A stretch of DNA of 64,000 nt, from assembly GCA_035505655.1 (NCBI GenBank), contig DATJQP010000085.1, positions 6,395 to 70,394 on the forward strand, written 5' to 3'. The notes under the pieces are model-generated. The model was given only the letters and a program-made list of their open reading frames with translations. It made no database searches and had not been told where the DNA came from. The DNA comes from Bacteroidota bacterium. Its GTDB lineage: Bacteria > Bacteroidota > Ignavibacteria > UBA10030 > UBA8401. Positions 10,465 to 45,821 of this stretch are shown one piece after another. Each line of letters starts with the position of its first letter. Position 1 is the stretch's first letter. Made by a program: the position numbers and the translations under genes.

Positions 10465-10558
10465 GAAAGTCTCCTTTCTGAAGAATGAGGTTTGACGGAT
10501 GGTGAAGATCGACGCGCTGCTTTGAAAACGCAGGGTCGTGAGTGATGAGAGCCGCCCC

Positions 10559-10966: not shown

Positions 10967-11466
10967 GGTGTAGCTCCTTTGTGGATTCCTGTAAGGGCGC
11001 TGAGCCTCTGTCTTGCCCGAAAGATCTTCACTTTGATGGCGGGAACGCCCAACCCTGTCGCCTGAGAGATCTCGGCGTATGAGAGTCCCTCCTCGGCTTT
11101 CATGAGAAGGATGCTCCGATCGAGTTCCGGGAGCTTGCCAAGTGCCTTGACGGTGGCGTCGAGTTCTATCCGTTCTCCAGCGAGGGCGTCGGGGAGAGGC
11201 GAAGGATCGGGAGCCTCAACGTCGAGGGTTCCTTTCTTGCGGGCTCGCCGTATTTCATGGAGATAGAGATTCCTCGCGATCGCGAGGAGGTATGCCTTGA
11301 CCGTCTCAAACCTGATCGGCGCCTCCGAAGTCCATGCCCGCACAAAGGTCTCCGATGCGATGTCCTTGGCGAGGGAACTATCCCCGCAGAGCCAGAACGA
11401 AAACCTGTAGACATCCGCTGAATACTTTTCGAAGAGTTCTTTAAAATCGGTCGACCTATTCTCCAT
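10963..11466 (-). CDS. ECF-type RNA polymerase sigma-70 factor.
   Basis: Region-2 motifs 'FKELFEKYSADVYRFSFWLCGD...AKDIASETFVRAW' are present. Region 4 has the helix-turn-helix 'LGKLPELDRSILLMKAEEGLSYAEISQATGLGVPAIKVKIFRARQRL'. The ATG at 11466 (MENRST...) is preferred over the longer ORF starting at 11559. Confidence 0.85.
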   Translation of the reverse strand: MENRSTDFKELFEKYSADVYRFSFWLCGDSSLAKDIASETFVRAWTSEAPIRFETVKAYLLAIARNLYLHEIRRARKKGTLDVEAPDPSPLPDALAGERIELDATVKALGKLPELDRSILLMKAEEGLSYAEISQATGLGVPAIKVKIFRARQRLSALTGIHKGATP

Positions 11467-11614
11467 GAGGATAATATCCGTGAAAGAGGGAAAAGTTACA
11501 CCAGAAAAGAGTGCCCGCAGCCGATCATGATGGAGACGTGGAAAGGAAAAAAGGATCAAATTCTAAAAAAGGACTTGACATCAAATGAAAACTTTTGTAT
11601 CCTTTCCCTGAAAG

Positions 11615-11635
11615 TTATCGGTAAAGTAAACGATA
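11615..11635 (+). promoter_or_regulatory. Conserved motif copy A (AAAGTTATCGGTAAAGTAAACGATA) upstream of the GH28 gene. It contains the near-palindrome TTAYCGGTAA.
   Basis: It matches the motifs at 34840-34860 and 37214-37234 (22/23 identical core). It lies in the divergent intergenic region between the ECF sigma gene and GH28. Confidence 0.35.
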
Positions 11636-11905
11636 AAGTTCAGGACGCCCAGAATTCTCATTGATCGTCTATTTATCCCCCAAATCTCTCAGAAACGCCA
11701 GGTTTTTTCCTTCACATCGCAGTTGCTCACTCGCTATACCCTTTAACTTCGGACCCGGATGGGTTCTCTCACATCCTGACCAGTTCAAAATCGTCGCCTC
11801 CGCTCCGGCTTCCGGCACTCCTCGGGAGGTTCAAAATAGAATTGCATTCTATAGATGAACTTTGCTACAACCTCTGAGTCGCCATTCATGTTGATTTCCG
11901 GCCTC

Positions 11906-13495
11906 ATGAGAAGGATCCTATCCCTCCTCCTTGGCGTCGTTCTATGCTCCAGTCCTGCTTTCTCGCAGGGTGGAGGAGCGAACTCCCCGGGAATTTCCCC
12001 GCAGATCCTTCCGATCGATGCTCCCTTCCCGTTGGCTCAGTTTATCAAACCCTCCTTTCCCGAAAAACGATTTTTGATCACTGACTTTGGCGCAGTCGCT
12101 CGCCCCGGAATCAAGAACACCGCCGCCATCCAACGCACGATCGATACCGCCGCCTTTGCGGGTGGCGGATGCGTCGTCGTTCCTCCGGGAGAATGGCTCA
12201 CAGGAGCAATCCGCCTGAAGAGCAACATCGATCTGGTCCTTGAAAAAGGGTCCGTTCTCCTTTTCAGCCAGGATCCTGCCGATTACCTCCCGGTCGTTTT
12301 TGCCAGGCATGAAGATATCGAATGCTACAAGTACTCCTCTTTCATCTACGCCGATCATTGCTCGAACATCGCCATCACGGGCGAGGGAACGCTCAACGGC
12401 CAGGGAAAGCCATGGTGGGAATGGAAAACGTCGAAGAGGTCGTGCGAGGAAGAGCTTGAGGCGATGGGAGCGAAGGGTGTCCCCGTGACCGAGCGGGTCT
12501 TCGACGGAAGCAATGGCCGCGTCCTTCGGCCGGCATTCTTCCAGCCGATGAATTGCACCAATGTTCTTGTCGAAGGGGTGACCTTTCTCTATGGCGCCTT
12601 CTGGACGATCACACCCACGTACTGCGACAAGGTCATCATCCGGGGAGTCACCGTCAGGACAGAGGGCTCGTACGGCCATACGCCGAACGGAGACGGCATC
12701 GATCCCTCCTCCTCGACAAATGTTCTCATCGAAGAGTGCACGTTTGACACCGGCGACGATTGCATCGCCATCAAGTCGGGGAGGGACGCGGACGGGCTGC
12801 GGGTTCATGCACCGACTGCGAATGTCGTCATCCGTCATTGCGTCGGGCTTGCCGGTCATGGAGGGATTGTCGTCGGGAGCGAAACGTCCGGGGGAATCCG
12901 TAATGTCTATGCAACAGATTGTACCTTCCACGGCACCGAGAGGATCGTGCGGATAAAGACGGCTCGTGGCCGTGGCGGAGCGATCGAACATATGTGGTTT
13001 CGAAACCTTACAGCCGATACGATCACCCAGGAAGTCATCCACATCAACATGCTCTATACCGGCAATCGCCTTCCTGCCGAGAAGGTAACGCCGACAACGC
13101 CGACGATCAGCGACCTTCACTTCGCGAAGATATCGTGCGGCTGGGGAAAAAGGAGCGCGATACAGATTACCGGGATTCCTGAGATGCCGGTTTCACACAT
13201 CACCTTCGATTCCATAACGATCGGTTCGGCAGAAGGAGTTGTCTGCAGCGACGCGGACAACATCACGTTCAGAGATCTGTCCGTTCACCCTCAGTCGGGT
13301 CCGCTTCTTTCTTTTGTCGATTGCGTAAAAGTGACCGTCACCCGGATCGTCATTCCGGAAGGTCACGAATCAATTGTGCTTGCCGAGGGTCCAAAGACGG
13401 GAGCGGTGACGATCTCTCCAGCCGGGGGAACGGGAAGGAATATCGCTGTGCACTATGGCCCCGACGCTTCTCATGATGCCGTGAAAATCGAATGA
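11906..13495 (+). CDS. Glycoside hydrolase family 28 (polygalacturonase-like).
   Basis: Signal peptide MRRILSLLLGVVLCSSPAFSQ. GH28 beta-helix motifs: 'GEGTLNGQGKPWWEW', 'NGDGIDPSSSTNVLIEECTFDTGDDCIAIKSGRD', 'GHGGIVVGSETSGGIRNV', 'RIKTARGRGGAIE'. The 11855 ATG is an alternative start. Confidence 0.85.
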   Translation: MRRILSLLLGVVLCSSPAFSQGGGANSPGISPQILPIDAPFPLAQFIKPSFPEKRFLITDFGAVARPGIKNTAAIQRTIDTAAFAGGGCVVVPPGEWLTGAIRLKSNIDLVLEKGSVLLFSQDPADYLPVVFARHEDIECYKYSSFIYADHCSNIAITGEGTLNGQGKPWWEWKTSKRSCEEELEAMGAKGVPVTERVFDGSNGRVLRPAFFQPMNCTNVLVEGVTFLYGAFWTITPTYCDKVIIRGVTVRTEGSYGHTPNGDGIDPSSSTNVLIEECTFDTGDDCIAIKSGRDADGLRVHAPTANVVIRHCVGLAGHGGIVVGSETSGGIRNVYATDCTFHGTERIVRIKTARGRGGAIEHMWFRNLTADTITQEVIHINMLYTGNRLPAEKVTPTTPTISDLHFAKISCGWGKRSAIQITGIPEMPVSHITFDSITIGSAEGVVCSDADNITFRDLSVHPQSGPLLSFVDCVKVTVTRIVIPEGHESIVLAEGPKTGAVTISPAGGTGRNIAVHYGPDASHDAVKIE

Positions 13496-16464
13496 GCTCA
13501 CGCCCGACAGACCGGAAGAATGACTTTCGACGCCAGGGCGCATCGGCAACTGTGGTCGATGTGAGGGCATACGAAGGGGAGACGCTTCGCGCGATTCTGA
13601 TCTTAGTTGCGGTCATTCTGTTTTTCGTGAATGCCGGGCCTCTGGTTGGTCAGACCATGGGGAAGGTCTCCGGGACGATCGTCGACAGGGACACCAAGGA
13701 ACCGCTTGTCGGATGCAACGTCGTCATCCTCGGAACAAGGCTTGGAGCGACGACCGACATCGACGGCTCGTTCTTCATTCTCAACGTCCTCCCCGGCGAG
13801 TACAACCTTGAAGCATCGATGATCGGCTACCAGAAGGTGATGCTCGAAGAGGTGATCGTCAATTCAGGAAGGACGACGACGGCGAACTTCGTCCTGACGT
13901 CGACAACCCTTGTGCAGGGGGAGGTGGAGGTCGTGGCGAAAAGGCCCGATGTTCAGCCGGAGAAAACCTCGACGAGCGAAATTGTCAGATCGGACGACGT
14001 GAAGATGGTCGCGGGGATGCGGGATGTCACCGATGTCATCTCTCTTGCGGCCGACGTCACCGACGGTCACTTCCGCGGCGGTCGGACGGGGGAGGAGCTC
14101 TATACGCTCCAGGGGATGGGGATCGTGAATCCCCTCGACGCGACGAGCGCTTTCGTTCCGATCCTCAGCGCCGTCGAGGAAGTCGAGGTGTCAACGAGCG
14201 GGTTTGGAGCGCAATACGGGAACGCCCAGTCTGGTGTTGTTAACATCACCATGAAGGAGGGGAAGTCGGATAAATGGAACACGAGCTTCGATGCACGCCT
14301 CCGGCTGCCCGGGAGAAAGACCTTTGGACCGAGTGTCTACGATCCGACCGCGAATCCGTACCTGGCGAAGCTCCTGAACATAAATTTCTGGCTCACGGGA
14401 GATGCCGAAACGAGCAATCAGCCCCTCTATTCAAGCATGGGTTCGGGCCTCTCCAACAGGTACGGGGGCGACACCGCAGTGATCCAACAGGTCGCCTACA
14501 CCTTGTGGAGGATGCAGACGAAGAGGGATCTCGACCTGAGCTACGGCAAGAGCATCGACTATGCCGTCGAAGGGGGAACGGGGGGACCGATCAACGATAT
14601 GATGAGGATGTTCGTCGCATTGCGGTCGAACGTCGTCAACCCGGAGTTTCCGACGCAGGATCCTGACGTCGACCGCCAGCTCATGGCGAATGTCGCGACC
14701 GACTTCGGGAAGGGGGCGACGCTCCTCGTCAGCGGCGGATATTCACAGAGCTTCTCCAACGTCTTTCCGAGCTCCGACGGCCTCGGATTCTACAAATGGC
14801 TCTGGGACAGAAACCTGGACATCGAGTATCAGAACACCATCAACGCGGAGTTCGGCGCGAGGTTTTCCAAAGCTCTCAGCGCGAGCACCTTCTACGAGGT
14901 GAAGCTCAACGCCCTGTCGACAAAGCTGAACCTCGGCTCCTCTCCGTGGCCGAGCGCTCTCCCCGATTCGCTCATCATCAAGCCCGAAAACACCAACACC
15001 GTTCTTACCGCGCCGGTCACCGGTCCCGATCTCTTCACCTACCTGGCCGGCAACGACGATTTCAGGCTCGAGAAGACTCTCACCGTTTCGTTCGAGGCGT
15101 CGATGACGAGCCAGGTGACCAAATCCCATCTCATCAACGGCGGCGTCCAGGTCAACGGTTATCAGATCGAGTCGGACGATGAGCTGAGCACAAGCGGCAC
15201 GGTCCAGACCCGCGACTACACCGCAAAGCCGATCGAGGCGGGATTCTACCTTCAGGACAAAATGGAATTCGAAGGGATGATCGCGAACGTCGGACTTCGG
15301 CTCGACCTGTGGAATTCCAACAAGGACTATTACGTCAACACCTTCGACCCGTTCGCGGTCATCAACGACTCGGGAAAAGTCGTTCGGAGCATCGCGTCGG
15401 CCGAATACGCGCGGACTCCGCTCATCGGCCGGTTACAGCCGAGGGCGGGAATTTCCTTCCCGGTTTCCGTGAACACGGTCTTCCATCTCAACTACGGCGC
15501 GTACATGCAGCGGCCGTCGTTCCAGTACATCGTGACGACGAGCGTTCAGCCCCAGTACAACGAACCGGTGACGCTCGGCAACCCGCGCCTCGAGCCGGAG
15601 ACGACGAACAGCTACGACGTGGGGATCATGCAGGGACTCGGAGAGGGGATGACGCTTGACATCAGCGGATACTACAAGGATGTGAAGAACCTTATCGAAC
15701 AGGCGACCTTCACCGATGTCGTCAGTGCAGTGACCTACAACACCTACTACAACAGAGACTACGCCGACATCCGGGGTTTCAGAGCGACCCTTGCCAAACG
15801 GAGCGGAGAGATCGCGGCCTCGATCAGCTACCAGTACAGCGTGGCGACGGGGAAGAGTGCGACCGTTTCCGAAGCGCCGCCGCTCTTCAGGCGGGATTCG
15901 ACGGGGACGGTGACGACGGATCTCGGAGGCGTGCCGAACAGGGATATTCTCCTTGACTTCGACCGGACGCACAACCTCGTCATCACGCTTGCCTATTCCA
16001 CCCCGAAGGAATTCGGTCCGATGATTGCCGAGGCGTATCCGCTGGAGAACTTCACCTTCTCGGTGAACGCGTTTGCGAGAAGCGGGCGTCCCTACACTTC
16101 CTCGAAAGATCCGACGAACATCAATGCTGCCCGCACTCCCGCGGAATACAACACGAATATCCGTCTGACGAGAACATTCGACGACCTTGCAGGGGTTAAG
16201 ACGTCAGTCTACGCCGAGGTGTTCAACCTCTTCAACAACAAGATTTTGAACTATACGTACCTGTTTGCCGCGACGACCGCGAACCAGGCCAATCCCAACA
16301 TCCAGCCGTACGAGAACTACGCGTTCAACGACCCGCAGCGTGGAGTTCTTTACTGGAATACTTCGAACTCGGCGAGGCCGATTGCGTTCCCGGTCGACCA
16401 GTCGTTCCTCATTTACGACAACCAGCCACGATCGTATAACGTCGGAGTCAGCGTTGAATTCTAG
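13492..16464 (+). CDS. TonB-dependent outer-membrane receptor with an N-terminal CarboxypepD_reg-like domain (SusC/RagA-like architecture).
   Basis: CarboxypepD_reg region 'GKVSGTIVDRDTKEPLVGCNVVILGTRLGATTDIDGSFFILNVLPGEYNLEASMIGYQKV'. A plug region follows ('RSDDVKMVAGMRDVTDVISL...'), then a long beta-barrel with a C-terminal aromatic-rich end. The start overlaps the GH28 stop (ATGA); the exact start is uncertain. Confidence 0.85.
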   Translation: MSSRPTDRKNDFRRQGASATVVDVRAYEGETLRAILILVAVILFFVNAGPLVGQTMGKVSGTIVDRDTKEPLVGCNVVILGTRLGATTDIDGSFFILNVLPGEYNLEASMIGYQKVMLEEVIVNSGRTTTANFVLTSTTLVQGEVEVVAKRPDVQPEKTSTSEIVRSDDVKMVAGMRDVTDVISLAADVTDGHFRGGRTGEELYTLQGMGIVNPLDATSAFVPILSAVEEVEVSTSGFGAQYGNAQSGVVNITMKEGKSDKWNTSFDARLRLPGRKTFGPSVYDPTANPYLAKLLNINFWLTGDAETSNQPLYSSMGSGLSNRYGGDTAVIQQVAYTLWRMQTKRDLDLSYGKSIDYAVEGGTGGPINDMMRMFVALRSNVVNPEFPTQDPDVDRQLMANVATDFGKGATLLVSGGYSQSFSNVFPSSDGLGFYKWLWDRNLDIEYQNTINAEFGARFSKALSASTFYEVKLNALSTKLNLGSSPWPSALPDSLIIKPENTNTVLTAPVTGPDLFTYLAGNDDFRLEKTLTVSFEASMTSQVTKSHLINGGVQVNGYQIESDDELSTSGTVQTRDYTAKPIEAGFYLQDKMEFEGMIANVGLRLDLWNSNKDYYVNTFDPFAVINDSGKVVRSIASAEYARTPLIGRLQPRAGISFPVSVNTVFHLNYGAYMQRPSFQYIVTTSVQPQYNEPVTLGNPRLEPETTNSYDVGIMQGLGEGMTLDISGYYKDVKNLIEQATFTDVVSAVTYNTYYNRDYADIRGFRATLAKRSGEIAASISYQYSVATGKSATVSEAPPLFRRDSTGTVTTDLGGVPNRDILLDFDRTHNLVITLAYSTPKEFGPMIAEAYPLENFTFSVNAFARSGRPYTSSKDPTNINAARTPAEYNTNIRLTRTFDDLAGVKTSVYAEVFNLFNNKILNYTYLFAATTANQANPNIQPYENYAFNDPQRGVLYWNTSNSARPIAFPVDQSFLIYDNQPRSYNVGVSVEF

Positions 16465-16474
16465 AAGGTTTGCC

Positions 16475-18697
16475 ATGCGCATCGCACGGTTCGTAGTGAG
16501 AGGAGCTTCGACGGAATTGCTCCTCTGCTGCATGCTCTTCGCCTTCTCAACTGCGCAGACGCGGGCGCCGCAGACCCACACGAGGGGGATGCTTCACCAG
16601 ACGGTCTATAATACGGGAGAGCTCGGCCGCGCGTTCGACGGCGGGCAGACCGGGATGACGGCGGGGTACTCGTCGATGGAGTGGCCGCCGAACTCTCACA
16701 TCATTCTCGACGGCAGGGACTACCCCGGACAGCACAACTCGATGGGAGGCGGAGTCTACCTTGCGGGGGTGCTCAACGGGACGCGCCAGACCGTTGCCTG
16801 CGGCGCCATCGCGACGGCGGGAAATGGTCAGACGGTTCCCATAGAAGGTGTCTACAGTTTCCCGATATCAAACTCCCGGACCGAGAACTACCCCGTGTTG
16901 AGCAACGGAGATCTCAACCCGTCATACAATCCCAACGAAGCCGAGGAGACGATTGTTGCGACATGGAACACGCCGCTCAACATCACCGTCACGCGAACGA
17001 GCCGCGCGTGGAGTTACCCGGGTTACAATTGCTTCATCATCTACGAGTACGATTTCGTCAACGCAAACCCAACCCCCATTACCGATGCGTTTGTCGGATG
17101 GGGATACGGGCTCTGTCCCTCGATGTTCGGCTACCAGCGGTTGTACAACGAGTGGTCCGAGAGCGCCGATATGCGCTCGAAGGACATGTATGCGCGTTTT
17201 GACCTCAAGCGCTGGATGTCGTACAACCAGGAGCGCATCGGCAAACCGGACGCGACGTACTTCGACTATTGGTCGGGCCCCGGGGACAGAGGAGGGCTCG
17301 ATTCGCCGCAAGCCGTGGGTTTCCTTCCTCTCTATTATGATCACGACCACCTCGCCGTGAAGGGACAGACGAATTACCCTGTTGCCTCAGACAGCGCCTA
17401 CGTCTGGGACGAAACGAACAGGATCAAACAGCCCTACACGAACCGGTACGAAAACAGGAACGTCGACATCACGAAAATCCAAAGCTGGACCGATATCACG
17501 ACACGAAAGACCCAGGCTTTCGGCGGGTCGTCCGACTCGACAAGTTTCCTTGCAACAAACGCGGGAGACTGGGCCTATTGGAAGGGAAGGGCAAAGCCGA
17601 CGTCGAACCTTGGATGGAAGCAGCCGGTGGTGCACGGGTACGTGTTCGGACCGTATACGTTCCCTCCAAACGAGCATGTCCGATTTTCGATCGCTGAAGT
17701 TGTCGGGTACGGCGCCGGCGACGCAGGCGACACGGTCTATGACGACCTCGGTGGCGGAATCGAGACGACCGGGAATGTCTTTCATCAGGTCGACAGCTGG
17801 TACAACGAACTCCACTATTCGACCGCCGGAGGTTCACCGTCCGCAATCGGAAGCTCGTATCTCCGGACCCACGAGCTTCCGTGGTACGTGACGCCCGGCG
17901 TAGTATCGATACGCGACGTTGCCGACAGAGCCATCCAGATGTACACCGGTGCGGCGGCTCCCATCAAACACGATTCGGTGCAATTCGATCCCCGATACAC
18001 CCCCCAGACCGGAAATTACGCCAACACGATCCCGATCCCTATTCCGGCGCCGGTCTTCACCGTCCAGAACACAAGCGCGGGGGTGAATCAAATTACCTGG
18101 GGTTCGCAGGTGGAGTCGTTCTCGACGCCGAGGCTCCATGCCCCGTTCAGCTACTACATGGCGTACCGATCGACGAGCGCGCTCGGACCATGGAAGCTCA
18201 TGGACAGCATCGGGAAGGAAGACCCCCGGTACTGGCGCGATACCTCCTACGTCCTCTACGATCACGACAGCAACGCGGGCGAGGATGCGTACTATATCAT
18301 CTACTCGGTCGACGGGCTCGGCATGAGGAGTGGCGTCACCAACCTTACGGCGCACAACACGCAGGCGCCGGCCTCCCTGACGCTTAACAAGGTCTGGGTA
18401 GTGCCGAATCCGTTCATCGTGTCGTATGGCGGGAACGCGACGTCGACGGCCGGGGACGTGACGGACAAGATCGGCTTTTTCGGACTTACGAAGAAATGCA
18501 CGATCCGGATCTTTTCCTACAGCGGTGCGCTCGTCCAGACCATCGATCACGATACTCCGCCGACCTCCGGCTACTCGCAGGAGTGGTTCCAGATCTCCCG
18601 GAACAATCAACTGATGGCCTCCGGGGTCTACTTCTTCACGGTGGACGATGCCGCGACCGGAAAACGGGTCACGGGAAAGTTTGTCGTTATTCATTGA
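16475..18697 (+). CDS. Hypothetical secreted protein (740 aa) in the position of the TBDR partner. Its C-terminal beta-sandwich resembles a T9SS CTD / FlgD-Ig-like domain.
   Basis: Signal-like N-terminus MRIARFVVRGASTELLLCCMLFAFSTAQT. C-terminus 'VVPNPF...CTIRIFSYSGALVQTIDHD...GVYFFTVDDAATGKRVTGKFVVIH'. No SusD/TPR features. The start is 11 nt after the TBDR stop. Confidence 0.6.
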   Translation: MRIARFVVRGASTELLLCCMLFAFSTAQTRAPQTHTRGMLHQTVYNTGELGRAFDGGQTGMTAGYSSMEWPPNSHIILDGRDYPGQHNSMGGGVYLAGVLNGTRQTVACGAIATAGNGQTVPIEGVYSFPISNSRTENYPVLSNGDLNPSYNPNEAEETIVATWNTPLNITVTRTSRAWSYPGYNCFIIYEYDFVNANPTPITDAFVGWGYGLCPSMFGYQRLYNEWSESADMRSKDMYARFDLKRWMSYNQERIGKPDATYFDYWSGPGDRGGLDSPQAVGFLPLYYDHDHLAVKGQTNYPVASDSAYVWDETNRIKQPYTNRYENRNVDITKIQSWTDITTRKTQAFGGSSDSTSFLATNAGDWAYWKGRAKPTSNLGWKQPVVHGYVFGPYTFPPNEHVRFSIAEVVGYGAGDAGDTVYDDLGGGIETTGNVFHQVDSWYNELHYSTAGGSPSAIGSSYLRTHELPWYVTPGVVSIRDVADRAIQMYTGAAAPIKHDSVQFDPRYTPQTGNYANTIPIPIPAPVFTVQNTSAGVNQITWGSQVESFSTPRLHAPFSYYMAYRSTSALGPWKLMDSIGKEDPRYWRDTSYVLYDHDSNAGEDAYYIIYSVDGLGMRSGVTNLTAHNTQAPASLTLNKVWVVPNPFIVSYGGNATSTAGDVTDKIGFFGLTKKCTIRIFSYSGALVQTIDHDTPPTSGYSQEWFQISRNNQLMASGVYFFTVDDAATGKRVTGKFVVIH

Positions 18698-18713
18698 GCG
18701 AGAGATCGATTCC

Positions 18714-19742
18714 ATGAACATGACGAGGCGATTTGGAGTCTTCCTGGCGGCGATGATGCTGGCCTCCGTAAGCGCGGATGCGCAGAAGGTCGGAAGCACG
18801 TCGATGGAATTCCTCGAGGTGATGCCGGTCGCCCGGGCGACCGCCCTCGGCGACGCCTACAGCGTCTGGGCGACGGGTGCGGACGCCGTTTTCTGGAACC
18901 CGAGCGGGCTCGCCGTCATAGAGCATCAGGAGCTCTCCTCGACCTTCGTGAAATGGATCTTCGATACGCGACAGGGAGCTCTTTCGTACGCCACACCGCT
19001 CGGGGCACTCGGCGCCGTCGGCCTTCAGATCCAGTATGTCGACTACGGCGAATTTGAGGAAGCTGTTGCGACCCGGCCGTATATCGACCAGATTGAGAAC
19101 CAGGGACTCACGGGAAACACCTTCCATCCATTCAGCTATCTCGTCGGACTCAGTTACGCCCGGAGCCTGACGGACAAGTTTTCGACGGGGCTTTCGGTGA
19201 AGTTTGCTCACGAGTCGCTCTACAACGGTCAGATGGTCCTTGCGCAGGTGAGTCCGATCGCGACGGAGGAAGTGAAGACATGGGCGAGTGGGGTGATGTT
19301 CGATTTCGGGATGCGCTACAACACCGGCTATCACACGGTCCAGATCGGAGCATCGGTGCAGAATTTTGGACCCAATGTGACCTACGCAATTCAGTCGAGC
19401 CCGGTGCCGTTGTTGTTCCGATGGGGCATCGCCGCGGATGTCATCGGAAAGGATGCTCTCCTTCTCGAGGACGGCGAGAACCGCGTGGGCATCGCCTTCG
19501 ATCTCTACCAGCCGAACGACTACGCACAACAGGAACATCTGGGTGTTGAGTATGAGTACGCGGGGGTGCTCGCCCTCCGGGTCGGGTACAAGTTTAACTA
19601 CGACTATGAGGGGCTCACCCTCGGAGCGGGAGTTCAGCAACCGATCGGGTCCGTGCTCCTTGCTTTTGACTACAGTTACGGTTCAATCGGTCCTTACCTC
19701 GGCAATGTTCAGCGAATAAGCCTCGGAGCGAGAATTCAATGA
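18714..19742 (+). CDS. PorV/PorQ-like (UPF0164-like) outer-membrane beta-barrel protein.
   Basis: Signal MNMTRRFGVFLAAMMLASVSADAQ. The N-terminal motif 'KVGSTSMEFLEVMPVARATALGDAYSVWATGADAVFWNPSGLAV' matches the PorV-family signature (G-T-S-x-x-FL-x-I-x-x-x-AR-A-x-A-x-G-x-A...DA-x-A-x-(Y/F)-WNP-(A/S)-GLA). Alternating amphipathic beta strands; the protein ends '...ISLGARIQ'. Confidence 0.55.
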   Translation: MNMTRRFGVFLAAMMLASVSADAQKVGSTSMEFLEVMPVARATALGDAYSVWATGADAVFWNPSGLAVIEHQELSSTFVKWIFDTRQGALSYATPLGALGAVGLQIQYVDYGEFEEAVATRPYIDQIENQGLTGNTFHPFSYLVGLSYARSLTDKFSTGLSVKFAHESLYNGQMVLAQVSPIATEEVKTWASGVMFDFGMRYNTGYHTVQIGASVQNFGPNVTYAIQSSPVPLLFRWGIAADVIGKDALLLEDGENRVGIAFDLYQPNDYAQQEHLGVEYEYAGVLALRVGYKFNYDYEGLTLGAGVQQPIGSVLLAFDYSYGSIGPYLGNVQRISLGARIQ

Positions 19743-21223
19743 AACCATTGACGGCTATTCTTGCTCTTCTCACGACCGCGGCGCTGCTCGGGGACGAAGC
19801 GCGGGGGCAGGGCTTTGGCAGACCGTTGACGACCCAGGGGATTGACCAGGCCTCATCTCAGTCGGTTCGGTCGGCGGGTGAAGGAAATATTTTTGTCGGG
19901 CTGGACGGGGATCCCAGTCTCATGTTCGAGAATCCGGCATCCCTGCAATCGATCAAAGAGATCGAGGTGACGCTCAACGGACAATCGCTGAGAAGCTCGT
20001 TCAATCAGACTCAGCAGTATGCGCCGCTGAAGTACTACTCAAATTTCAGCCTCCTCATGGAGGGGCTTACCGGATACATCGGCAATCCGGATACGAACAT
20101 TGCCGGCGTGAAGCTCACGAACGCCGGCGACACTGTTCAGCGACCCTACGACAATTACACGCCGGGTTGGACCCACTCTTCGACGAAAGGGAAGCCTGTC
20201 CAGGGCTATCTTGCCGTGCCGTTCAGGGTGAACGACATGGCGTGTGCGATCGGCATCGGTTCGGTCGAGTACGCAAACCTCGACTGGTATTTTGAAAACA
20301 ACAACGTGCTCTCTCCGTCGATCCTTTCGGTGAAGCAATCGACGATCACGATCCCGGCGAACAACACCGATTCGCTCGCGATCCCGGTCCAATGGTATCT
20401 CTCCTCTCAGTCACGGCTCGGGACGCTCTACGGATATGGGGCGGCCTTCTCGGCGGGAGTTTCGGACAACATCGCCCTCGGCGTCAGCGCGCTCATCCTG
20501 AGCGGGAGAAGCGACGACTTTGAATCGCGGATCGACCGCGGGAAGCTTCTTTTCTATAATTCCTTTTTCAGGCTCGACTCGGTCTACAACAGGATCTCGG
20601 CCTATGGCACGTCGAATTACAGCGGAGCAGAGCTGAACCTCAGCGGCTCATACAGAGGGCGTTACGTTGCGCTCGGCTTCTCGGTAAAACCTCCGACGAC
20701 TATCACGCGAAAATTCACTACGAACTCCGCGATTGACACCACCGGCCTCTTCTCGACGAGCTCGGTCAGCGGAGAGGACAAGACGATGCTTCCATGGCGG
20801 GGAACGGTCGGGCTCTCGCTCTCCCTGCGACCGAACCTCCGGCTGGGGCTTTCCTACGAGATGCGCCCCTACGTGTCGACAAAATTTACCGCTTCCGACG
20901 GCTCCGTCTCCTACCCGTGGCTCTCGGCAAATTTGTTTCACATCGGCGCTGAGTTCATTCCGGCTCCGTGGCTGGCACTTCGGGCGGGGGCTAGGCAGGA
21001 GGCGGAGGTATTCGAACCAGTCGACAACCCCCTTGAAGGAACGCCGGTTGGATTTACGGTCTATTCGCTCGGAGTCGGGTTTGTCGTAGAGGAGATGACG
21101 GTGGATGTCGCCTACGAGTATTCCTCCTACAAGTACAGCGACACGTGGGCCGATGCGGTAAGTATCAACGGCGCCATCCGCCACTCGGTTATGGCCGATG
21201 TTTCGTACCGGATCCCGTGGTAA
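19739..21223 (+). CDS. Second PorV/FadL-like outer-membrane beta-barrel paralog.
   Basis: Overlaps the previous stop (ATGA). Signal MKPLTAILALLTTAALLGDEARGQ. Degenerate PorV-like N-motif 'SSQSVRSAGEGNIFVGLDGDPSLMFENPASLQ'. The C-terminal outer-membrane barrel signature ends '...VSYRIPW'. Confidence 0.45.
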   Translation: MKPLTAILALLTTAALLGDEARGQGFGRPLTTQGIDQASSQSVRSAGEGNIFVGLDGDPSLMFENPASLQSIKEIEVTLNGQSLRSSFNQTQQYAPLKYYSNFSLLMEGLTGYIGNPDTNIAGVKLTNAGDTVQRPYDNYTPGWTHSSTKGKPVQGYLAVPFRVNDMACAIGIGSVEYANLDWYFENNNVLSPSILSVKQSTITIPANNTDSLAIPVQWYLSSQSRLGTLYGYGAAFSAGVSDNIALGVSALILSGRSDDFESRIDRGKLLFYNSFFRLDSVYNRISAYGTSNYSGAELNLSGSYRGRYVALGFSVKPPTTITRKFTTNSAIDTTGLFSTSSVSGEDKTMLPWRGTVGLSLSLRPNLRLGLSYEMRPYVSTKFTASDGSVSYPWLSANLFHIGAEFIPAPWLALRAGARQEAEVFEPVDNPLEGTPVGFTVYSLGVGFVVEEMTVDVAYEYSSYKYSDTWADAVSINGAIRHSVMADVSYRIPW

Positions 21224-21298
21224 GCCCGCCTGCTTTGCGAGCGCGATGAATATATCAACACCAATTGTTTTATCCAATTCTACGGAAGGAGATTGACC

Positions 21299-22831
21299 AT
21301 GAGACGGATGTACATACTTGTCGGGATCATCCTGATCGCGGGATGGCTTGGCGTTCAGGCTCAGACGAGCAACGGGACGGGAGGTGGGAAGTGGAGTGCT
21401 TCTGCCACCTGGCAGGGAGGGAACGTGCCGACCGGGTCCGGGACCATCGTCATTCAGGCCGCCGACTCGGTCTACATCGATGTTCCCGTCACGATCACTG
21501 GGACCCTTCGATCGTTCAGCGGAAAGATTGGCGTCTATGATTCGACGAAGATCGTCTTCGGGAACGGAGGAATCTACGAGCACGACATCAACGGCGGAAT
21601 GCTGCCGAAAGCGGTGTGGAATGCCGGCTCGACATGTCTCATCGACAGTCTCGTAGGGAATGCACCGGCGAACGGGAACCAAAACTTCTACAACCTTACG
21701 TGGAATTGCCCCCGTCAAAGCGCCGGTCTCAACCTTGCCATGAATGGCAACACGATCGGCGGCACTGTGCGGGTGATACAATCAAACCTCCAGGCGTTCC
21801 GATTGACTGCGAGCGGGGTGTCGACGACGCGAAAGACGGTCTCAATCAACGGGGACGTCATCATCGATGACTCGACGGGTTTTTTCACCGCGACGGGGTC
21901 AAGCGGTGTCGACACGATCACCGTCAACCTCAAGGGGAGCCTCACCTCGTACGGAAAATTCCAGCTTGCGAACGGGAGCGGGGCATCGTGCACCTGGCGA
22001 GTGGGAGGAGACGTCAAGGCGCTGGGTGGAACCTTTACAACCCACTCCGACTCGACGAAACCCGATTCTCTTATCTTTGTGGGAACCACCAAGCAGTCGC
22101 TCGTGAAGGCGGGAACGGTCGGCTCAATGTCGAACATCTACTTCGCGGTTCAAAGCGGCTCGACGCTCGATCTTGACACCAATGAGCTCGGTGCCACCGC
22201 GACGATCAAGTTCAGTCTCCAGCCGGGAGCGACGCTCTTCACAGGCCATCCGAACGGCTTCGAAGGGAACCTCAACAATACCGGCACCATCCTCCTGAGT
22301 CCCGCCGCCAATTATGGTTTCGACGGAAAAGTCGCGCAAACAACCGGCTTCCTCATGCCGGGCACGGTGAACAACCTCACCATCAACAACGCGAGCGGCG
22401 TAACGCTGGCGCAGTCGACAACGATCAACGGAGTGCTGACGCTCACGGCGGGGTTGTTCGACAACACGATCCCATTCACGCTGGGGCCCGGTGGTTCCAT
22501 TGTCAATGGTGGAGGGACGCTCAAGATTCCCGTGACCCTCGTCCCGAAAGAATCGTCCGGTGTTCCGCGCAAGTTTTTTGTCGAGCAGAACTATCCCAAT
22601 CCGTTCAACCCGACGACGCTGATCTCCTATGGAATTCCGAAGGATGAATATGTTTCAGTGAAGGTCTTCAACATCCTCGGTCAGGAGGTGAGGACGATCG
22701 TGGCGGAGAAACAGAGCGCCGGCGTCTATTCGTTCTCGTTCGACGGCTCCGGGCTCAGCTCGGGCGTCTATCTTTACAGGATTCAGGCCGGCAGTTCGGT
22801 TGATATCAAACGAATGATGCTCCTCAAGTAG
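21299..22831 (+). CDS. Secreted beta-helix/adhesin-like repeat protein with a T9SS CTD. Member of the 'GxW...TW / NGNQNFYN(L/V)TW(N/D)C' paralog family.
   Basis: RBS GGAAGGAG 7 nt upstream of the ATG at 21299. N-module 'GKWSASATWQGGNVPTGSGTIVI...NGNQNFYNLTWNCP'. C-terminal CTD 'EQNYPNPFNPTTLISYGIP...VKVFNILGQEV...GVYLYRIQAGSSVDIKRMMLLK'. Confidence 0.7.
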   Translation: MRRMYILVGIILIAGWLGVQAQTSNGTGGGKWSASATWQGGNVPTGSGTIVIQAADSVYIDVPVTITGTLRSFSGKIGVYDSTKIVFGNGGIYEHDINGGMLPKAVWNAGSTCLIDSLVGNAPANGNQNFYNLTWNCPRQSAGLNLAMNGNTIGGTVRVIQSNLQAFRLTASGVSTTRKTVSINGDVIIDDSTGFFTATGSSGVDTITVNLKGSLTSYGKFQLANGSGASCTWRVGGDVKALGGTFTTHSDSTKPDSLIFVGTTKQSLVKAGTVGSMSNIYFAVQSGSTLDLDTNELGATATIKFSLQPGATLFTGHPNGFEGNLNNTGTILLSPAANYGFDGKVAQTTGFLMPGTVNNLTINNASGVTLAQSTTINGVLTLTAGLFDNTIPFTLGPGGSIVNGGGTLKIPVTLVPKESSGVPRKFFVEQNYPNPFNPTTLISYGIPKDEYVSVKVFNILGQEVRTIVAEKQSAGVYSFSFDGSGLSSGVYLYRIQAGSSVDIKRMMLLK

Positions 22832-22893
22832 TTTGCCGCACGAAGAACAGGCCGGGGACGCAGACCGACTGCGGCCCTGAAGGGAAGGATTTC

Positions 22894-24612: not shown

Positions 24613-24618
24613 ATCTGC

Positions 24619-25833: not shown

Positions 25834-25854
25834 TATCCCGCGGAAGTCGGAGCG

Positions 25855-30879: not shown

Positions 30880-30964
30880 CCGGCGGCTCCAGCATGGAGC
30901 GCCGAATACTGAGAAGACGAATCTCTTTTTGAGTACACCTCGACAGACGATACGGAGGATCGAG

Positions 30965-42794: not shown

Positions 42795-45700
42795 ATGCGG
42801 AGTAGCGTCATGAACTTCCGACTACTGATCCGATCAGTGTGCTTCGCGGTTATCGCCCTCCCTGCCGTGTCGTTCGGACAGGCGACCCTTCATGGGGTCG
42901 TCTCCGACTCCCTTACCGGGGAGAATCTCATCGGGATCAACGTCACCCTCGAGGGGACCTCTCTCGGCTCGGCGACGAACATCGAAGGGGAGTACCGGAT
43001 CACGGCAATCCCGAGGCGTGCGTTCGTCGTCAAGGTATCGTGTATCGGGTACGAGACAAAGAGAATCGACGTCGATTTCACTGACAAGACCGAGGTTCAG
43101 CTCAATATTCGGCTCAAGCAAACGATCCTTCAGGGCGAGGCCGTCGTCATCACGGCCCAGATGAGAGGCCAGGTGGCGGCGATCAACCAGCAGGTGACGT
43201 CGAAGACGATCGTCAATGTCGTCTCCGAGGAAAAGATCAAGGAGCTCCCCGATGCCAATGCTGCGGAATCGATCGGAAGACTGCCAGGCGTTTCCATCAT
43301 CAGGTCGGGAGGCGAAGCGTCGAAGATCGTTCTCCGCGGGCTCAGTTCCAAGTTCAGCAACATCACCGTCGACGGAGTGAAGATCGCTTCGACGGACTCC
43401 ACGTCGCGCGACGTCGACCTGAGCACGATCTCACAAGGGGAGCTTGCGGGCATTGAGCTCAGCAAAGCGATCACCTCCAACCAGGACGGCGACGCGATCG
43501 CCGGATCGGTGAACCTCGTGACACGTAAAGCCCCGACGGAACGGACGGTTGTCTTTGACTTTCTCGGCGACTACAACGCTCTTATGAAGTCGGGAAAACA
43601 GTACAACATCACCGGGCGGTACGGTGAGCGGTTCTTTGACAATCTCCTTGGTGTGCAGCTTCAAGGGAATGTGGAGGACAAAATCCGCAGCAAAGAGGAT
43701 ATCACATACAGCTACTATTATTTGCACCCTCAAAGCGGCAATGACCCGACTGACATCGATTACAGGATGGCCCCTTTCACGGTCGACTTCACCGATGAAG
43801 ATAGGACAAGAGAAGGGGGGCAGGTGATCTTTGACGTGAACACGCCCGACAGCGGATCCGTCAAGCTCTCCGGCCTCTACAGCAGCACCGGACGGAACAC
43901 GATGCTGTACGATCGGGTCTACCCGGGTATCGGTGCAGGCGGGGGATCGTGGGACTATAATTACCGGTACACCCAAACGACGACGAGCATCGAAAACAGT
44001 TCCCTCCAGGGGAAGAATTATCTCGCCGGTTTCGACGTCGATTGGAGCGCATCGTACGCCCAGTCGCGAGTCGACAACCCGTATGATTTCGCGATGAAGT
44101 TCACGGAGAGTCCTGGCACGAACAGCGTGGTCCCCTCGGGCCGATCCAACCCGGATATCAACATCATTCCCTACGCCGCAAACAACTTCCTGGCGGCTCC
44201 CTGCTCAACCTCGATCTATTCCCAAAGGAACAACTACGACAGGGAGCGTACCGCGTACCTCGATGCCGAGAAGTCGTACAGACTGCTCGATGCGCTTTCA
44301 GGAGAGGTTCAGGTTGGTGGAAAATACCGCGACCGCACGCGGTGGATGAACAGTGAAGAACTCGACGATAACAATTACCTCCACGGGTTCTCTCCGATCG
44401 GGGTCGATACCGTCGCGATGGAAAACAGCCGATTCGCCGACTACTATTACCACCGCGGTATCAGCTCTCCATCCCTTTCGGATTTCGTGGATTTCCCCGC
44501 CAAATCCCGCGACCTCCTCGGTCTCTACCGGATGACGCCCCTCATCAGCGTCGATGCGCTGAAACAATGGTACCAGCTTGTCAAGGATGCCACCGCCAAC
44601 GGATCTGCTGAGTTCGGGTCGAGCGCCCGTGCTGAGCTGACCGATTACAGCGTCCACGAAAGAGTGAGCGCGGCGTACCTGGCGAACACGTTCAACATTG
44701 GCCAGGCGGCGTCTGTGTACACCGGCGTACGGATGGAAAAGGAATCGGACGATTACGGCGCCAAGCTTACCGACGGAGCCATCTCGACCATCGGCATCCG
44801 GGAAAGCACGCCGAACCCGATCAGGGATTCCACGATCAATTATGGCGAGACGATCTGGCTGCCGAACTTTCAGCTCTCGGTGAAGCCCACCGACTACCTG
44901 ACAGTGAGGGCTGTCGCGTACAAAGCCCTTGCCCGTCCAGACTATAACTTGCGTCTCCCGTCGTTCGAAATTTCCGGAAACGGGGGGGAGACGTTCAACC
45001 TCGGGAACCCGGCACTCAAAGACACGAAAGCGTGGAACTATGAGCTCAACACGCAGATCTACAACACGACGATCGGTCTCATTTCCGTCTCCGGCTTCTA
45101 CAAAGTCATCGACGACCTCTATCATGAGATGAGCAATGTGAGCGTCGATAACGTCGACTCTCTCTTCGCCGCACAAGGCATGACGTGGCAGAATGCAGCC
45201 CCGTTCTCGAATATCATTCATCAGCGTTCCCTTCACTTCCTGAACGTGCCGTACAATTCGGACAAGAAGTCGTACGTTTGGGGCTTTGAGTTCGAGCACC
45301 AGATGGCGTTCGGTTTTCTGCCTGGCTATCTGAGCAATATCACGTTGTCATACAATCTGTCGATTACCCGTTCGGAGACGTGGATCATCGGCAGTCAGGT
45401 CACGACGTCATCGGAGACAACGCTCGTTCACAATAAGCCGATCGTTACGACCGTGTTCCATCATTTGCCCGTAGAGCTCAAGCGCGAATCGGAGGGACAG
45501 CCGAACCTCTACGGCAACCTTGCAGTCGGGTACGACATCGGCGGTTTCTCTGCCCGGGTCTCGTGCTTCATGCAAGCCCAGTACGTCCAGCAGTACTCCC
45601 AGGACGGGCAGTCGGATGTCTATGTCGACCCCTTCACCAAATGGGATCTTGCGCTGAAGCAGAAGCTCACCGATACCTTCTCGCTGCTTCTCAATGTCAA

Positions 45701-45821
45701 CAACCTGACGAATCGCCAGGAAAAAACATCGGTGAAGAACAATGTCGTCGCATGGCAGATCCCGAAGACGGCGGAACTCTACGGAACTACCGTCGACTTT
45801 GGCGTTCGAGTAACCCTGTAA
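42795..45821 (+). CDS. TonB-dependent outer-membrane receptor with an N-terminal CarboxypepD_reg-like domain (SusC-like architecture).
   Basis: Signal 'FRLLIRSVCFAVIALPAVSFGQ'. 'TLHGVVSDSLTGENLIGINVTLEGTSLGSATNIEGEYRITAIPRRAFVVKVSCIGYETKRIDV'. Plug 'VVSEEKIKELPDANAAESIGRLPGVSIIRSGGEASKIVLRGLSSKFSNITVDGVKIAST'. A ~800-aa barrel follows. Confidence 0.85.
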   Translation: MRSSVMNFRLLIRSVCFAVIALPAVSFGQATLHGVVSDSLTGENLIGINVTLEGTSLGSATNIEGEYRITAIPRRAFVVKVSCIGYETKRIDVDFTDKTEVQLNIRLKQTILQGEAVVITAQMRGQVAAINQQVTSKTIVNVVSEEKIKELPDANAAESIGRLPGVSIIRSGGEASKIVLRGLSSKFSNITVDGVKIASTDSTSRDVDLSTISQGELAGIELSKAITSNQDGDAIAGSVNLVTRKAPTERTVVFDFLGDYNALMKSGKQYNITGRYGERFFDNLLGVQLQGNVEDKIRSKEDITYSYYYLHPQSGNDPTDIDYRMAPFTVDFTDEDRTREGGQVIFDVNTPDSGSVKLSGLYSSTGRNTMLYDRVYPGIGAGGGSWDYNYRYTQTTTSIENSSLQGKNYLAGFDVDWSASYAQSRVDNPYDFAMKFTESPGTNSVVPSGRSNPDINIIPYAANNFLAAPCSTSIYSQRNNYDRERTAYLDAEKSYRLLDALSGEVQVGGKYRDRTRWMNSEELDDNNYLHGFSPIGVDTVAMENSRFADYYYHRGISSPSLSDFVDFPAKSRDLLGLYRMTPLISVDALKQWYQLVKDATANGSAEFGSSARAELTDYSVHERVSAAYLANTFNIGQAASVYTGVRMEKESDDYGAKLTDGAISTIGIRESTPNPIRDSTINYGETIWLPNFQLSVKPTDYLTVRAVAYKALARPDYNLRLPSFEISGNGGETFNLGNPALKDTKAWNYELNTQIYNTTIGLISVSGFYKVIDDLYHEMSNVSVDNVDSLFAAQGMTWQNAAPFSNIIHQRSLHFLNVPYNSDKKSYVWGFEFEHQMAFGFLPGYLSNITLSYNLSITRSETWIIGSQVTTSSETTLVHNKPIVTTVFHHLPVELKRESEGQPNLYGNLAVGYDIGGFSARVSCFMQAQYVQQYSQDGQSDVYVDPFTKWDLALKQKLTDTFSLLLNVNNLTNRQEKTSVKNNVVAWQIPKTAELYGTTVDFGVRVTL

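Follow-up and report, generated by a model that had tools for sequence, protein, structure and literature searches.

A conserved SusD-less receptor cassette with a T9SS-type partner protein and a PorV/PorQ-family barrel among the pectin-degradation genes of an uncultured bacterium related to Ignavibacteria

The cluster of pectin-degradation genes analysed here, in a single stretch of DNA of 64 kb (the window) from an uncultured, Ignavibacteria-like bacterium, contains a conserved cassette whose genes encode a TonB-dependent receptor (TBDR1), a partner protein of 740 residues (U740) that carries a divergent type IX secretion (T9SS) C-terminal domain (CTD), an outer-membrane barrel of the PorV/PorQ family (PorVQ) and a second barrel of 494 residues (B494). 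We give roughly even odds, a probability of about 0.5, to the reading that this region is a conserved SusD-less, T9SS-linked module of the outer membrane that takes up oligosaccharides derived from pectin (polyuronates), in which the CTD of U740 would be docked on PorVQ. The cassette is apparently undescribed so far, as no account of it was found in the literature open to full-text search, largely that outside the subscription journals, where absence is not proof.

Gene order and distribution of the cassette

The five open reading frames (ORFs) that an earlier note had assigned to this first module are all present at their positions on the plus strand (Table 1). The pectin genes of the window are GH28, PL1, PL9, CE8, GH88, KduI/D and UxaC, and the downstream genes of the locus belong to periplasmic and cytoplasmic uronate catabolism. 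As neither Pfam nor NCBIfam gave a SusD-like or RagB match among the ORFs scanned (most of those of at least 200 residues in the window, nearly all on the plus strand), the idea of a SusD-less receptor module in a glycan locus is borne out, with pectin as the glycan. Core genes of the T9SS are absent from the 64 kb.

Table 1. Position in the window of the genes of the cassette, the regions of U740 and the second receptor module
Feature	Position	Strand	Profiles or other evidence
GH28 polygalacturonase-like gene	11855..13495	+	PF00295, 132 bits
TBDR1, TonB-dependent receptor: CarboxypepD_reg-like N-terminal domain, plug, barrel	13492..16464	+	PF13620, PF13715
U740, 740-residue partner protein: Sec signal peptide, Gln after the predicted cleavage site	16475..18697	+	
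U740 N-terminal segment, residues 28-89, RGMLHQTVYNTGELGR...	16556..16741	+	column conservation 0.59-0.72
U740 body, residues about 90-520: beta-supersandwich (galactose-mutarotase-like)	16742..18034	+	
U740 FN3-like domain, residues about 521-632	18035..18370	+	
U740 CTD, residues 633-740 and stop: divergent, type-A-like T9SS CTD	18371..18697	+	
PorVQ, 342-residue PorV/PorQ-family outer-membrane barrel, cassette-specific	18714..19742	+	NF033709, PF19572
B494, 494-residue FadL/BamG-like 14-strand barrel	19739..21223	+	structure model
C512, 512-residue protein with canonical type A CTD	21293..22831	+	PF18962, TIGR04183
TBDR2, Xanthomonas/Caulobacter-type receptor, in a module apart from the cassette	42795..45821	+	TIGR01782, Plug, PF00593
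C673, 673-residue partner of TBDR2: Ig-like/choice-of-anchor-D domains, canonical CTD	45964..47985	+	PF18962, PF15780, NF012200

The start of the receptor gene overlaps the stop of GH28 by 4 nt (13492-13495), so that the transcription unit probably begins with the GH28 gene; many related loci likewise have a GH28 gene immediately upstream of the receptor. The spacing is 10 nt from TBDR1 to U740, and beyond the second barrel there are 69 nt to C512 and a further 62 nt to the next gene. The overlapping start and stop codons formerly claimed for the genes of the module were found between the two barrels (4 nt, 19739-19742) and not between U740 and PorVQ, which are separated by 16 nt. Because a promoter and terminator scan of 11400-26000 gave a site count not above that of shuffled sequence, the boundaries of the cassette operon are drawn from spacing only.

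The quartet TBDR1-U740-PorVQ-B494 keeps its order in 69 of the 83 related loci, which come from different species of Ignavibacteria, KSB1 and Calditrichia, and 13 of the other 14 are cut by the end of a contig; such an identical gene order in different species is far beyond what chance would produce, and a fortuitous adjacency of the genes is thus ruled out. These loci are of pectin and alginate type, the latter being the context of a 44%-identical paralog. In their conservation, the proteins of the cassette are approximately on a par with the enzymes that the locus encodes for periplasm and cytoplasm, and ahead of the TBDR2/C673 pair. One genome may hold several copies, with paralogous cassettes in loci for different glycans, and the cassette is spread over hundreds of uncultured genomes. 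In the distant superfamily, the triad of receptor, partner and PorV-like barrel occurs in all eight distinct loci whose sequence extends beyond the gene of the partner, in contexts that include GH94/GH18 (chitin/beta-glucan-type), GH106 (rhamnosidase-containing) and GHL10 loci, and a ninth, which ends just past the partner gene, has a TBDR1-like ORF upstream. The triad seems to be a general design, which further glycan loci of Ignavibacteria, KSB1 and Calditrichia employ with diverged partners.

As for the receptor, Pfam recovers from TBDR1 itself only the CarboxypepD_reg N-terminal domain and misses the plug and the barrel, and NCBIfam gives partial receptor matches. Its identity as a TonB-dependent receptor comes from its orthologs, which match Plug (PF07715) and TonB_dep_Rec (PF00593), and from the profile-profile alignment of its family with that of TBDR2 (hhalign 99.4%), which runs over residues 39-737 and includes the N-terminal domain, the plug and most of the barrel. 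The median identity of TBDR1 is 55% across loci whose U740 is 50-60% identical.

The partner protein and its C-terminal domain

U740 has more than 545 homologs (41-82% identity) of constant length, at least 231 matching loci being confirmed in a collection with one genome per species, and its superfamily numbers 963 cluster representatives (E <1e-10). No Pfam match and no CAZy-type family match was obtained for it with Pfam and NCBIfam. Its identity exceeds 50% across phyla, which is unusually high for a glycan-binding protein. A lipobox-like motif is found in one of 80 members of the family, a frequency that corresponds to a chance match and that rules out U740 as a lipoprotein.

The AF2 model of U740 is of moderate quality only (pLDDT 68, pTM 0.71). 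The supersandwich fold of its body is, according to the structural matches, associated with carbohydrate enzymes, and a Foldseek search against the PDB returned only FN3/Ig tandem matches together with the same supersandwich matches. The body is a putative carbohydrate-binding or catalytic domain. Residues 1-89 are modelled as unstructured, with pLDDT below 50; the N-terminal segment (residues 28-89) has, however, a mean p-distance of 0.43, as low as that of the CTD, and is a candidate region for protein-protein contact.

No part of the protein is better conserved than the CTD (p-distance 0.42). It gives no match at E <=0.01 to PF18962 or TIGR04183, and the type B model PF13585 does not match U740 either. 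The C-terminus aligns, in contrast, with that of PorZ (E=2e-6) and with PDB entry 5m11 (E=2e-4), its best database matches being the retained CTD of PorZ, and hhalign relates it to the seven canonical CTDs of the window (98.6%) with an insertion present. Common to the superfamily is a signature made up of VVPNPF, an insertion of 14 residues and CTIRIF..G.LV.TI.H ... SGVYFF ... GKFVVIH. Judged by sequence, it is homologous to the type A CTDs but is a separate subclass, by virtue of the insertion and of a different C-terminus. In two homologs of the U740 body (L044 and P0080) the CTD is canonical and neither a receptor nor a barrel adjoins the gene, which ties the special CTD to the cassette. 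The earlier note was right in giving the partner of TBDR1 a T9SS-type CTD, as seen from the PorZ matches and the hhalign alignment; its wider statement, that both receptors are followed by proteins with such domains, holds for the presence of a CTD in both cases, with the difference that the CTD of U740 is of an atypical subclass and that of C673 is canonical. Both proteins lack a lipobox.

The two barrels and the fifth gene

PorVQ passes the cut-offs of the PorV/PorQ family model NF033709 (208.6 bits vs 90, over its full length) and of PF19572 (33.4 vs 27), but remains below those of the PorV equivalog NF033710 (74.8 vs 250) and of the PorQ equivalog NF033711 (90.2 vs 220). It matches the PorV of F. 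johnsoniae (6h3i_F) at E=1.7e-5, and some of its homologs have faint co-matches to PF11751. In the NCBI record of the identical protein, named "PorV/PorQ family protein", translation starts at the second ATG, at 18720. Since PorVQ belongs to the family and yet is neither of the two equivalogs, a dedicated, cassette-specific barrel is plausible. It is the best-conserved member of the cassette, with a median identity of 61%. A mirror-tree analysis of 56 loci, with the sub-regions of U740, PorVQ, B494 and TBDR1, gave no specific signal of co-evolution between the CTD and PorVQ (partial r 0.09 controlling for TBDR1); the partial correlation of PorVQ with B494 was 0.51 once the TBDR1 signal had been removed.

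B494 was modelled as a 14-strand barrel of FadL fold, with a large conserved extracellular insertion at residues about 95-142, and reaches no family cut-off among the Pfam and NCBIfam profiles. It neither scores above the cut-off of the PorV/PorQ family nor shows full-length homology to the first barrel, and on the BamG equivalog NF053685 it obtains 38 bits (cut-off 250), its gene being situated in a catabolic cassette. The two tandem PorV paralogs that had been proposed are thus reduced to one member of the PorV/PorQ family, the product of 18714-19742, followed by a FadL/BamG-like barrel, and the possibility that both are PorV paralogs is discarded by the fold of the model and the family scores.

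The further CTD cargo protein expected after the barrels is confirmed in C512, with a canonical Por_Secre_tail (TIGR04183 44.9 bits vs 23; PF18962 38.1 vs 27). It is a common fifth gene that the cassette can do without: about half of the loci have it behind the barrels, and in the rest the place is taken by other CTD proteins or by none. A specific pairing of B494 with C512 is ruled out, because B494 persists without a fifth CTD gene, for example in alginate-type loci. By sequence, neither C512 nor C673 had an informative match in the PDB.

A possible mechanism, its alternatives and related systems

In the proposed module, TBDR1 would be the TonB-energised importer, and U740 would be exported via Sec and then, through its CTD, by the type IX pathway. 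Unlike in the other CTD proteins of the locus, this CTD would be neither cleaved nor linked to glycolipid, and would dock non-covalently on the PorVQ encoded directly downstream, in the manner of PorZ on PorQ and PorU on PorV. Such a docking would place the supersandwich body at the cell surface, beside TBDR1, where it could bind, and possibly trim, uronate chains and pass them to the receptor. A precedent for the retention exists in the proposal, put forward in a review (PMC10202324), that CTDs are shielded from cleavage by their cognate PorV-like barrels, and PDB entry 8glk holds PorV together with a 75-residue chain, named "Endonuclease I", that aligns with a canonical CTD of the window. 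B494, which only the polyuronate version has, might be a second membrane platform, perhaps for the N-terminal segment of U740 or for further CTD proteins such as C512; this is a guess, for which there is a parallel in the FadL-type barrels that serve as platforms for surface proteins, as in BamG-BamH of the Bacteroidota BAM complex (PMC12578637).

Among the alternatives, it is rather unlikely that PorVQ, and perhaps B494, would act not as an anchor but as a cargo-specific shuttle or adaptor of the T9SS, required for the export of U740 alone, in the way that SprF/PorP-like barrels serve SprB-type cargo, with U740 as a novel polyuronate enzyme, released or covalently attached, whose products TBDR1 would import. 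PorVQ does belong to the PorV/PorQ family, and U740 equals the locus enzymes in conservation, has many invariant charged and aromatic residues and presents a fold that is also the catalytic or core domain in GH174 enzymes, some lyases and mutarotases; its high conservation and the existence of orphan copies whose CTD is ordinary would suit an autonomous enzyme no less than an accessory of the receptor. However, the top structural matches of U740 are non-catalytic N-terminal domains of larger enzymes, the protein lacks a CAZy-type family match, the special CTD and the body are equally well conserved, which would not be expected of a disposable signal, and U740 is strictly adjacent to the receptor in all subfamilies, a sign of something more than a regulation in common.

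Two other explanations depart further from the docking model. The barrels could be FadL-type or porin-like channels for a pectin- or alginate-derived product, with no link to the T9SS and with the C-terminal Ig domain of U740 as a structural element only, since some barrel orthologs pass the Pfam FadL model (PF03349) and, on some barrels, Pfam gives faint or weak PorV/PorQ matches together with UPF0164 (PF03687). We consider this improbable: FadL channels are known to take hydrophobic cargo and to release it laterally, whereas uronates are anionic and hydrophilic; import is already served by the TonB-dependent receptor; PorVQ lies far above the PorV/PorQ family cut-off; and the joint presence of special CTD and barrel would be left unexplained. 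Very improbable, in turn, is that TBDR1 exports U740 instead of importing sugars, after the example of Oar of Myxococcus, a TonB-dependent transporter without which the protease PopC is not secreted (PMC6434023). Relatives of TBDR1 with a CarboxypepD_reg N-terminal domain and occasional OMP_b-brl_4 matches would agree with it, but the latter signal is faint in the polyuronate family, U740 has a T9SS-type CTD with a PorV-family gene next to it, and the locus, whose downstream uronate catabolism is periplasmic and cytoplasmic, needs an importer of oligosaccharides.

The proposed uptake module, with U740 docked on PorVQ, can be compared with several known systems. As in the SusC/SusD loci of Bacteroidota, the gene directly after a receptor that has a CarboxypepD_reg-like N-terminal domain encodes a non-enzymatic-looking, putative surface partner, the pair is located among CAZymes and a regulator, and paralogous copies lie in loci for different glycans. 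The differences are that (i) TBDR1 falls outside SusC/RagA (TIGR04056, 58 bits, and 67 for TBDR2, vs 368, the match in both covering no more than the N-terminal domain and the beginning of the plug) and no SusD-like gene is found among the ORFs scanned; (ii) U740 has no lipobox and consists of supersandwich, FN3 and CTD instead of the TPR-like fold of SusD; and (iii) the unit includes one or two FadL-type barrels. With PorZ-PorQ and PorU-PorV of Porphyromonas gingivalis the cassette shares the pairing of a CTD protein, whose CTD is here atypical and matches best the retained CTD of PorZ, with a PorV/PorQ-family barrel; however, PorVQ stays below both equivalog cut-offs, the body of U740 is unrelated to PorZ or PorU, and the pair is encoded with a receptor in catabolic loci, in several copies per genome, with no evident role in the secretion machinery. 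PorP/SprF-like barrels are described as cargo-specific and encoded beside the CTD protein that they serve or anchor, as in SprF-SprB and PorP-PG1035 (PMC9143113, PMC10202324), and the barrel gene of the cassette likewise adjoins that of its CTD protein, but the CTD of U740 is type-A-like, not type B, and PorVQ belongs to the PorV/PorQ family. B494, for its part, is about 100 residues longer than BamG, has its own conserved loop insertion and is encoded in a catabolic cassette and not among BAM genes.

It is possible, and we put it forward tentatively, that the triad would be an unrecognised general architecture of glycan capture in Ignavibacteria, KSB1, Calditrichia and related lineages, a counterpart of SusC/SusD in which the lid or binding protein would be delivered by the T9SS and held by a barrel in place of a lipid anchor. 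Polysaccharide utilisation loci beyond the classical Bacteroidia often lack the SusC/SusD pair that marks them and are hard to spot for that reason, and the cassette, if this is true, would be a marker for them in Ignavibacteria, KSB1 and Calditrichia. The role of PorV/PorQ-type barrels would then reach beyond the machinery of secretion, to that of permanent anchors which hold a specific cargo at the cell surface for nutrient uptake. In a family whose CTD subclass can be recognised and which has natural variants with a swapped CTD, the protection of CTDs by cognate barrels would become directly testable, and three uncharacterised families (the U740 superfamily, the PorV-like barrels of the cassette and the B494 barrels) would acquire a functional context that can be tested.

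The second module of the window is of another kind. The carbohydrate-scavenging loci of Xanthomonas and Caulobacter also have SusD-less receptors among CAZymes, and we know of no T9SS-targeted partner or PorV-like barrel in them. TBDR2 passes the cut-off of TIGR01782 (332.9 bits vs 310), unlike TBDR1, which obtains only 31 bits. As the CTD of C673 is canonical (TIGR04183 39.6 bits vs 23; PF18962 36.1 vs 27) and no barrel gene follows it, the two receptor modules are not equivalent. Nine related loci also contain the TBDR2-C673 pair, and eight of them are distinct (L003 duplicates L002).

A receptor-barrel cassette within a pectin utilisation locus

The window (GC about 0.57) is almost wholly occupied by one plus-strand pectin/galacturonate utilisation locus, with its closest relatives in Ignavibacteria-type MAGs, which comprises degradative genes (two GH28, PL1-like and PL9 lyases, CE8 esterases, GH88), catabolic genes (UxaC, KduI, KduD, an MFS transporter, sugar kinases, UxaE, KDPG aldolase), a LacI regulator, several large T9SS C-terminal domain (CTD) proteins and two TonB-dependent receptors; no SusD-like protein was detected among its scanned ORFs. 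At least seven of the window's proteins (an S8 protease, the CTD protein C512, the PL1-like lyase, proteins of 1334 and 712 aa, a CE8 esterase and C673, the partner of the second receptor) end in near-identical canonical type A CTDs (NYPNPFNPxT ... SGVYFY ... KKMxLLK), implying that a T9SS-type pathway is used heavily for the pectinolytic enzymes.

The five ORFs described in an earlier note are present, namely the receptor TBDR1, its 740-aa partner U740, the barrels PorVQ and B494 (the latter FadL/BamG-like), and C512. Their spacing is tight, with a further 4-nt overlap at the GH28/receptor junction; the overlapping start and stop codons that the note had claimed exist between the two barrels (4 nt), but not between the U740 and PorVQ genes; the U740 gene is flanked by gaps of 10 and 16 nt. 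That TBDR1 is a TonB-dependent receptor was confirmed by aligning its family with the bona fide receptor TBDR2, the N-terminal domain, plug and most of the barrel being matched (hhalign 99.4%), and by orthologs that match the Plug and TonB_dep_Rec models; in TBDR1 itself Pfam recognises only the CarboxypepD_reg domain, and its assignment to SusC/RagA was rejected (58 bits vs a cut-off of 368). PorVQ is a clear member of the PorV/PorQ family (NF033709, 208.6 bits vs a cut-off of 90), without being the equivalog of either PorV or PorQ.

U740 is very strongly conserved and has no Pfam domain; that of the complete relative OY970334.1 is 82% identical. The U740 family (upwards of 545 homologs, constant in length, with over 50% identity across Ignavibacteria, KSB1 and Calditrichia) carries a signal peptide that lacks a lipobox, a chance lipobox-like match occurring in 1 of 80 homologs, and Gln is usually the residue next to the predicted cleavage site. 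The AF2 model (pLDDT 68, pTM 0.71) has four parts, among them a highly conserved but unmodelled N-terminal segment (residues 28-89), an FN3-like domain and an Ig-like C-terminal domain, and is without a full-length structural analogue in the PDB. The most conserved part is the CTD, homologous to the seven near-uniform canonical ones of the window (hhalign 98.6%), but distinguished from them by an insertion of 14 residues that follows the PNPF motif and by the terminus GKFVVIH instead of KKMxLLK. The best database match of this special CTD is that of PorZ, which, according to a review, is retained and binds PorQ (PMC10202324).

Conservation of the cassette and of its core

When the window proteins were compared with ORFs from 83 related loci, of which 80 belong to a one-genome-per-species collection, the cassette TBDR1-U740-PorVQ-B494 was collinear on one strand in 69; 13 others stop at a contig boundary, and only one (L044) is a real exception. 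Several genomes contain two cassettes, and the contexts are of pectin type or, for a U740 paralog of about 44% identity, of alginate type. A dispensable fifth gene, encoding a C512-like or another CTD protein, often comes next. Among loci with a U740 of 50-60% identity, the median identities of TBDR1 (55%), U740 (52%), PorVQ (61%) and B494 (45%) are comparable to those of GH88 (51%), PL9 (55%) and UxaC (60%), and the second receptor pair lies below the cassette proteins (42% and 39%). The alginate-type paralogous cassette, seen in L067 and likewise in L063, L066, L068, L075 and L077, is without the fifth gene, and its locus includes a GntR regulator, a heparinase II/III-N protein, a PL17-like lyase, two SDRs and an MFS transporter.

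The exception is itself a natural experiment. The U740 homolog of L044 shares 52% identity as far as residue 647 and then continues into a canonical Por_Secre_tail (PF18962, 34.7 bits), with neither receptor nor barrel nearby. At least four more homologs (P0019, P0020, P0029, P0080) carry canonical CTDs, and in the sole readable neighbourhood among these four, that of P0080, there is again no receptor and no barrel. Homologs with such a swapped tail (NYPNPFNP...KKLLLLK), L044 included, are a minority of the family. Thus in about 70 loci the special CTD accompanies the cassette, and in 2 of 2 a canonical CTD belongs to an orphan gene, which ties the CTD subclass to the presence of the cognate barrel and receptor; at the level of sequence, this swap is the best support for a partnership between CTD and barrel.

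An exhaustive search with the U740 alignment as profile returned 3039 cluster representatives at E < 1e-3, 963 at E < 1e-10 and 68 at E < 1e-30. Outside the full-length family there are numerous proteins of 600-800 aa that have the N-terminal and the FN3 plus CTD parts in common with it, and all of these present the special signature (VVPNP[FY], an insertion of 10-30 residues, IxFxNxP, CTIRIYTxxGDLVxTIEH, GKFxIIK). A TBDR1-homologous CarboxypepD_reg/Plug receptor stands directly upstream of the partner in all nine distinct retrievable contexts (in L094 with one small antisense ORF between them), and a PorVQ-homologous barrel of 312-358 aa directly downstream in the eight loci that extend beyond the partner gene, the ninth (L084) stopping just past it; the three barrels scored against PorVQ gave HMM E-values of 1e-51 to 1e-61. 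None of those eight loci contains B494. The invariant core is thus a triad of receptor, special-CTD partner and PorV-like barrel, to which the polyuronate branch has added B494. Recognisable contexts include GH94/ROK/GH18/CBM9, GH106/FucU/ABC-sugar and GHL10 loci. Some distant triads (L085, L089) are followed by a GWxTD-domain or LRR protein and then by a DUF6785/DUF6784-type membrane protein, with no obvious CAZymes in these loci, so that the triad may not be confined to glycan uptake.

The pair formed by TBDR2 (Xanthomonas/Caulobacter type, TIGR01782) and C673, whose CTD is canonical, is found again upstream of the cassette in nine related loci, eight of them distinct, and neither there nor in the window does a PorV-like barrel follow it. 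The two receptor modules of the note therefore differ in kind.

A proposed mechanism by analogy and its alternatives

The cassette joins two known themes, receptor-based glycan loci and the handling of CTD proteins by cognate barrels. Its parts bear generic NCBI labels ("PorV/PorQ family protein", "T9SS C-terminal target domain-containing protein", "hypothetical protein"), and full-text searches of a library with few subscription journals brought up no account of the cassette, the special CTD subclass or PorV-like genes within receptor-based glycan loci. PorU and PorZ retain their CTDs, through which they sit on PorV and PorQ, and cognate PorV-like barrels have been proposed to shield CTDs from cleavage (reviewed in PMC10202324); adjoining PorP/SprF-like barrels take care of type B CTD cargo (PMC10202324, PMC9143113); and the FadL homolog BamG serves as a platform for surface proteins, the conserved N-terminus of BamH being wedged in its wall (PMC12578637). 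In the light of these precedents, the most economical reading is that U740 would be exported through the T9SS and held by its uncleaved special CTD on PorVQ, beside TBDR1, where its supersandwich body would be displayed to capture uronate oligomers for import. U740 would then do the work of SusD or of surface glycan-binding proteins without a lipid anchor, and B494 could be a second platform, either for the conserved N-terminal segment of U740 or for additional CTD proteins. The cassette is robust as a genomic pattern; as a mechanism it is hypothetical.

A co-evolution test did not discriminate between an anchored U740 and its alternatives. PorVQ could merely be a cargo-specific secretion helper, U740 being a novel enzyme, which would fit both the high conservation of U740 and its orphan copies, and which we consider rather unlikely. 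That the barrels of the cassette are channels seems improbable, as this would be chemically unattractive for uronates and would leave the link with the CTD unexplained. Very improbable, finally, is export of U740 by the receptor itself, for which the Oar-dependent export of PopC is a precedent (PMC6434023), given the CTD of U740 and the need for an importer.

Other features of the window and related loci

Coordinates of the features discussed, in the window unless a related locus is named
Feature	Position	Strand	Remarks
Start of window	1-5800		Only three plus-strand ORFs of at least 200 aa (126-875, 2805-3605, 3639-4295), none with a Pfam match
Canonical-CTD proteins	5836-9690, 21293-24612, 30788-42717, 45964-47985
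ECF-type sigma factor block	9781-11559	-	Sigma factor at 10963-11559, then two ORFs without Pfam match
TBDR1	13492-16464	+
U740	16475-18697	+
PorVQ	18714-19742	+
B494	19739-21223	+	Insertion at 20021-20164 (residues ~95-142)
C512	21293-22831	+
LacI regulator	25855-26952		Internal to the locus
DUF4350/GH28	26955-29623		306-aa DUF4350 ORF
Second receptor module	42795-49396		TBDR2 (42795-45821, +), C673 (45964-47985, +; Ig-like/choice-of-anchor-D), then a DUF4861/BT3233-like protein
Uronate catabolic block	54064-58951		Unusual genes between KduD and sugar kinases
U740 homolog, L044	9983-12205
Alginate-type locus with cassette, L067	3708-21682
Distant-triad region, L085	6351-9728
Distant-triad region, L089	6854-9691

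The insertion in B494, of about 50 residues and modelled with very low confidence, may be an interaction surface; invariant residues of its region are Q90, Q92, Y94, P96, Y99, Y100, L105, L106, E108, D131, R135 and W144. AT skew is negative over the first 5.8 kb of the window, unlike the remainder. The sigma factor block is divergent from the GH28/receptor operon, and an anti-sigma factor is possible among the ORFs that follow the sigma factor. The DUF4350 ORF runs 43 nt into the predicted start of the next GH28, and in L005 and L006 the DUF4350 match lies in a stop-to-stop frame of about 510 codons. A misassigned start, a frameshift or a genuine truncation could be the cause. In the uronate block, a PdxB-like 2-hydroxyacid dehydrogenase with DUF3410, a protein with the LarA (lactate racemase) N-terminal domain and the tagaturonate epimerase UxaE suggest a non-canonical galacturonate pathway.
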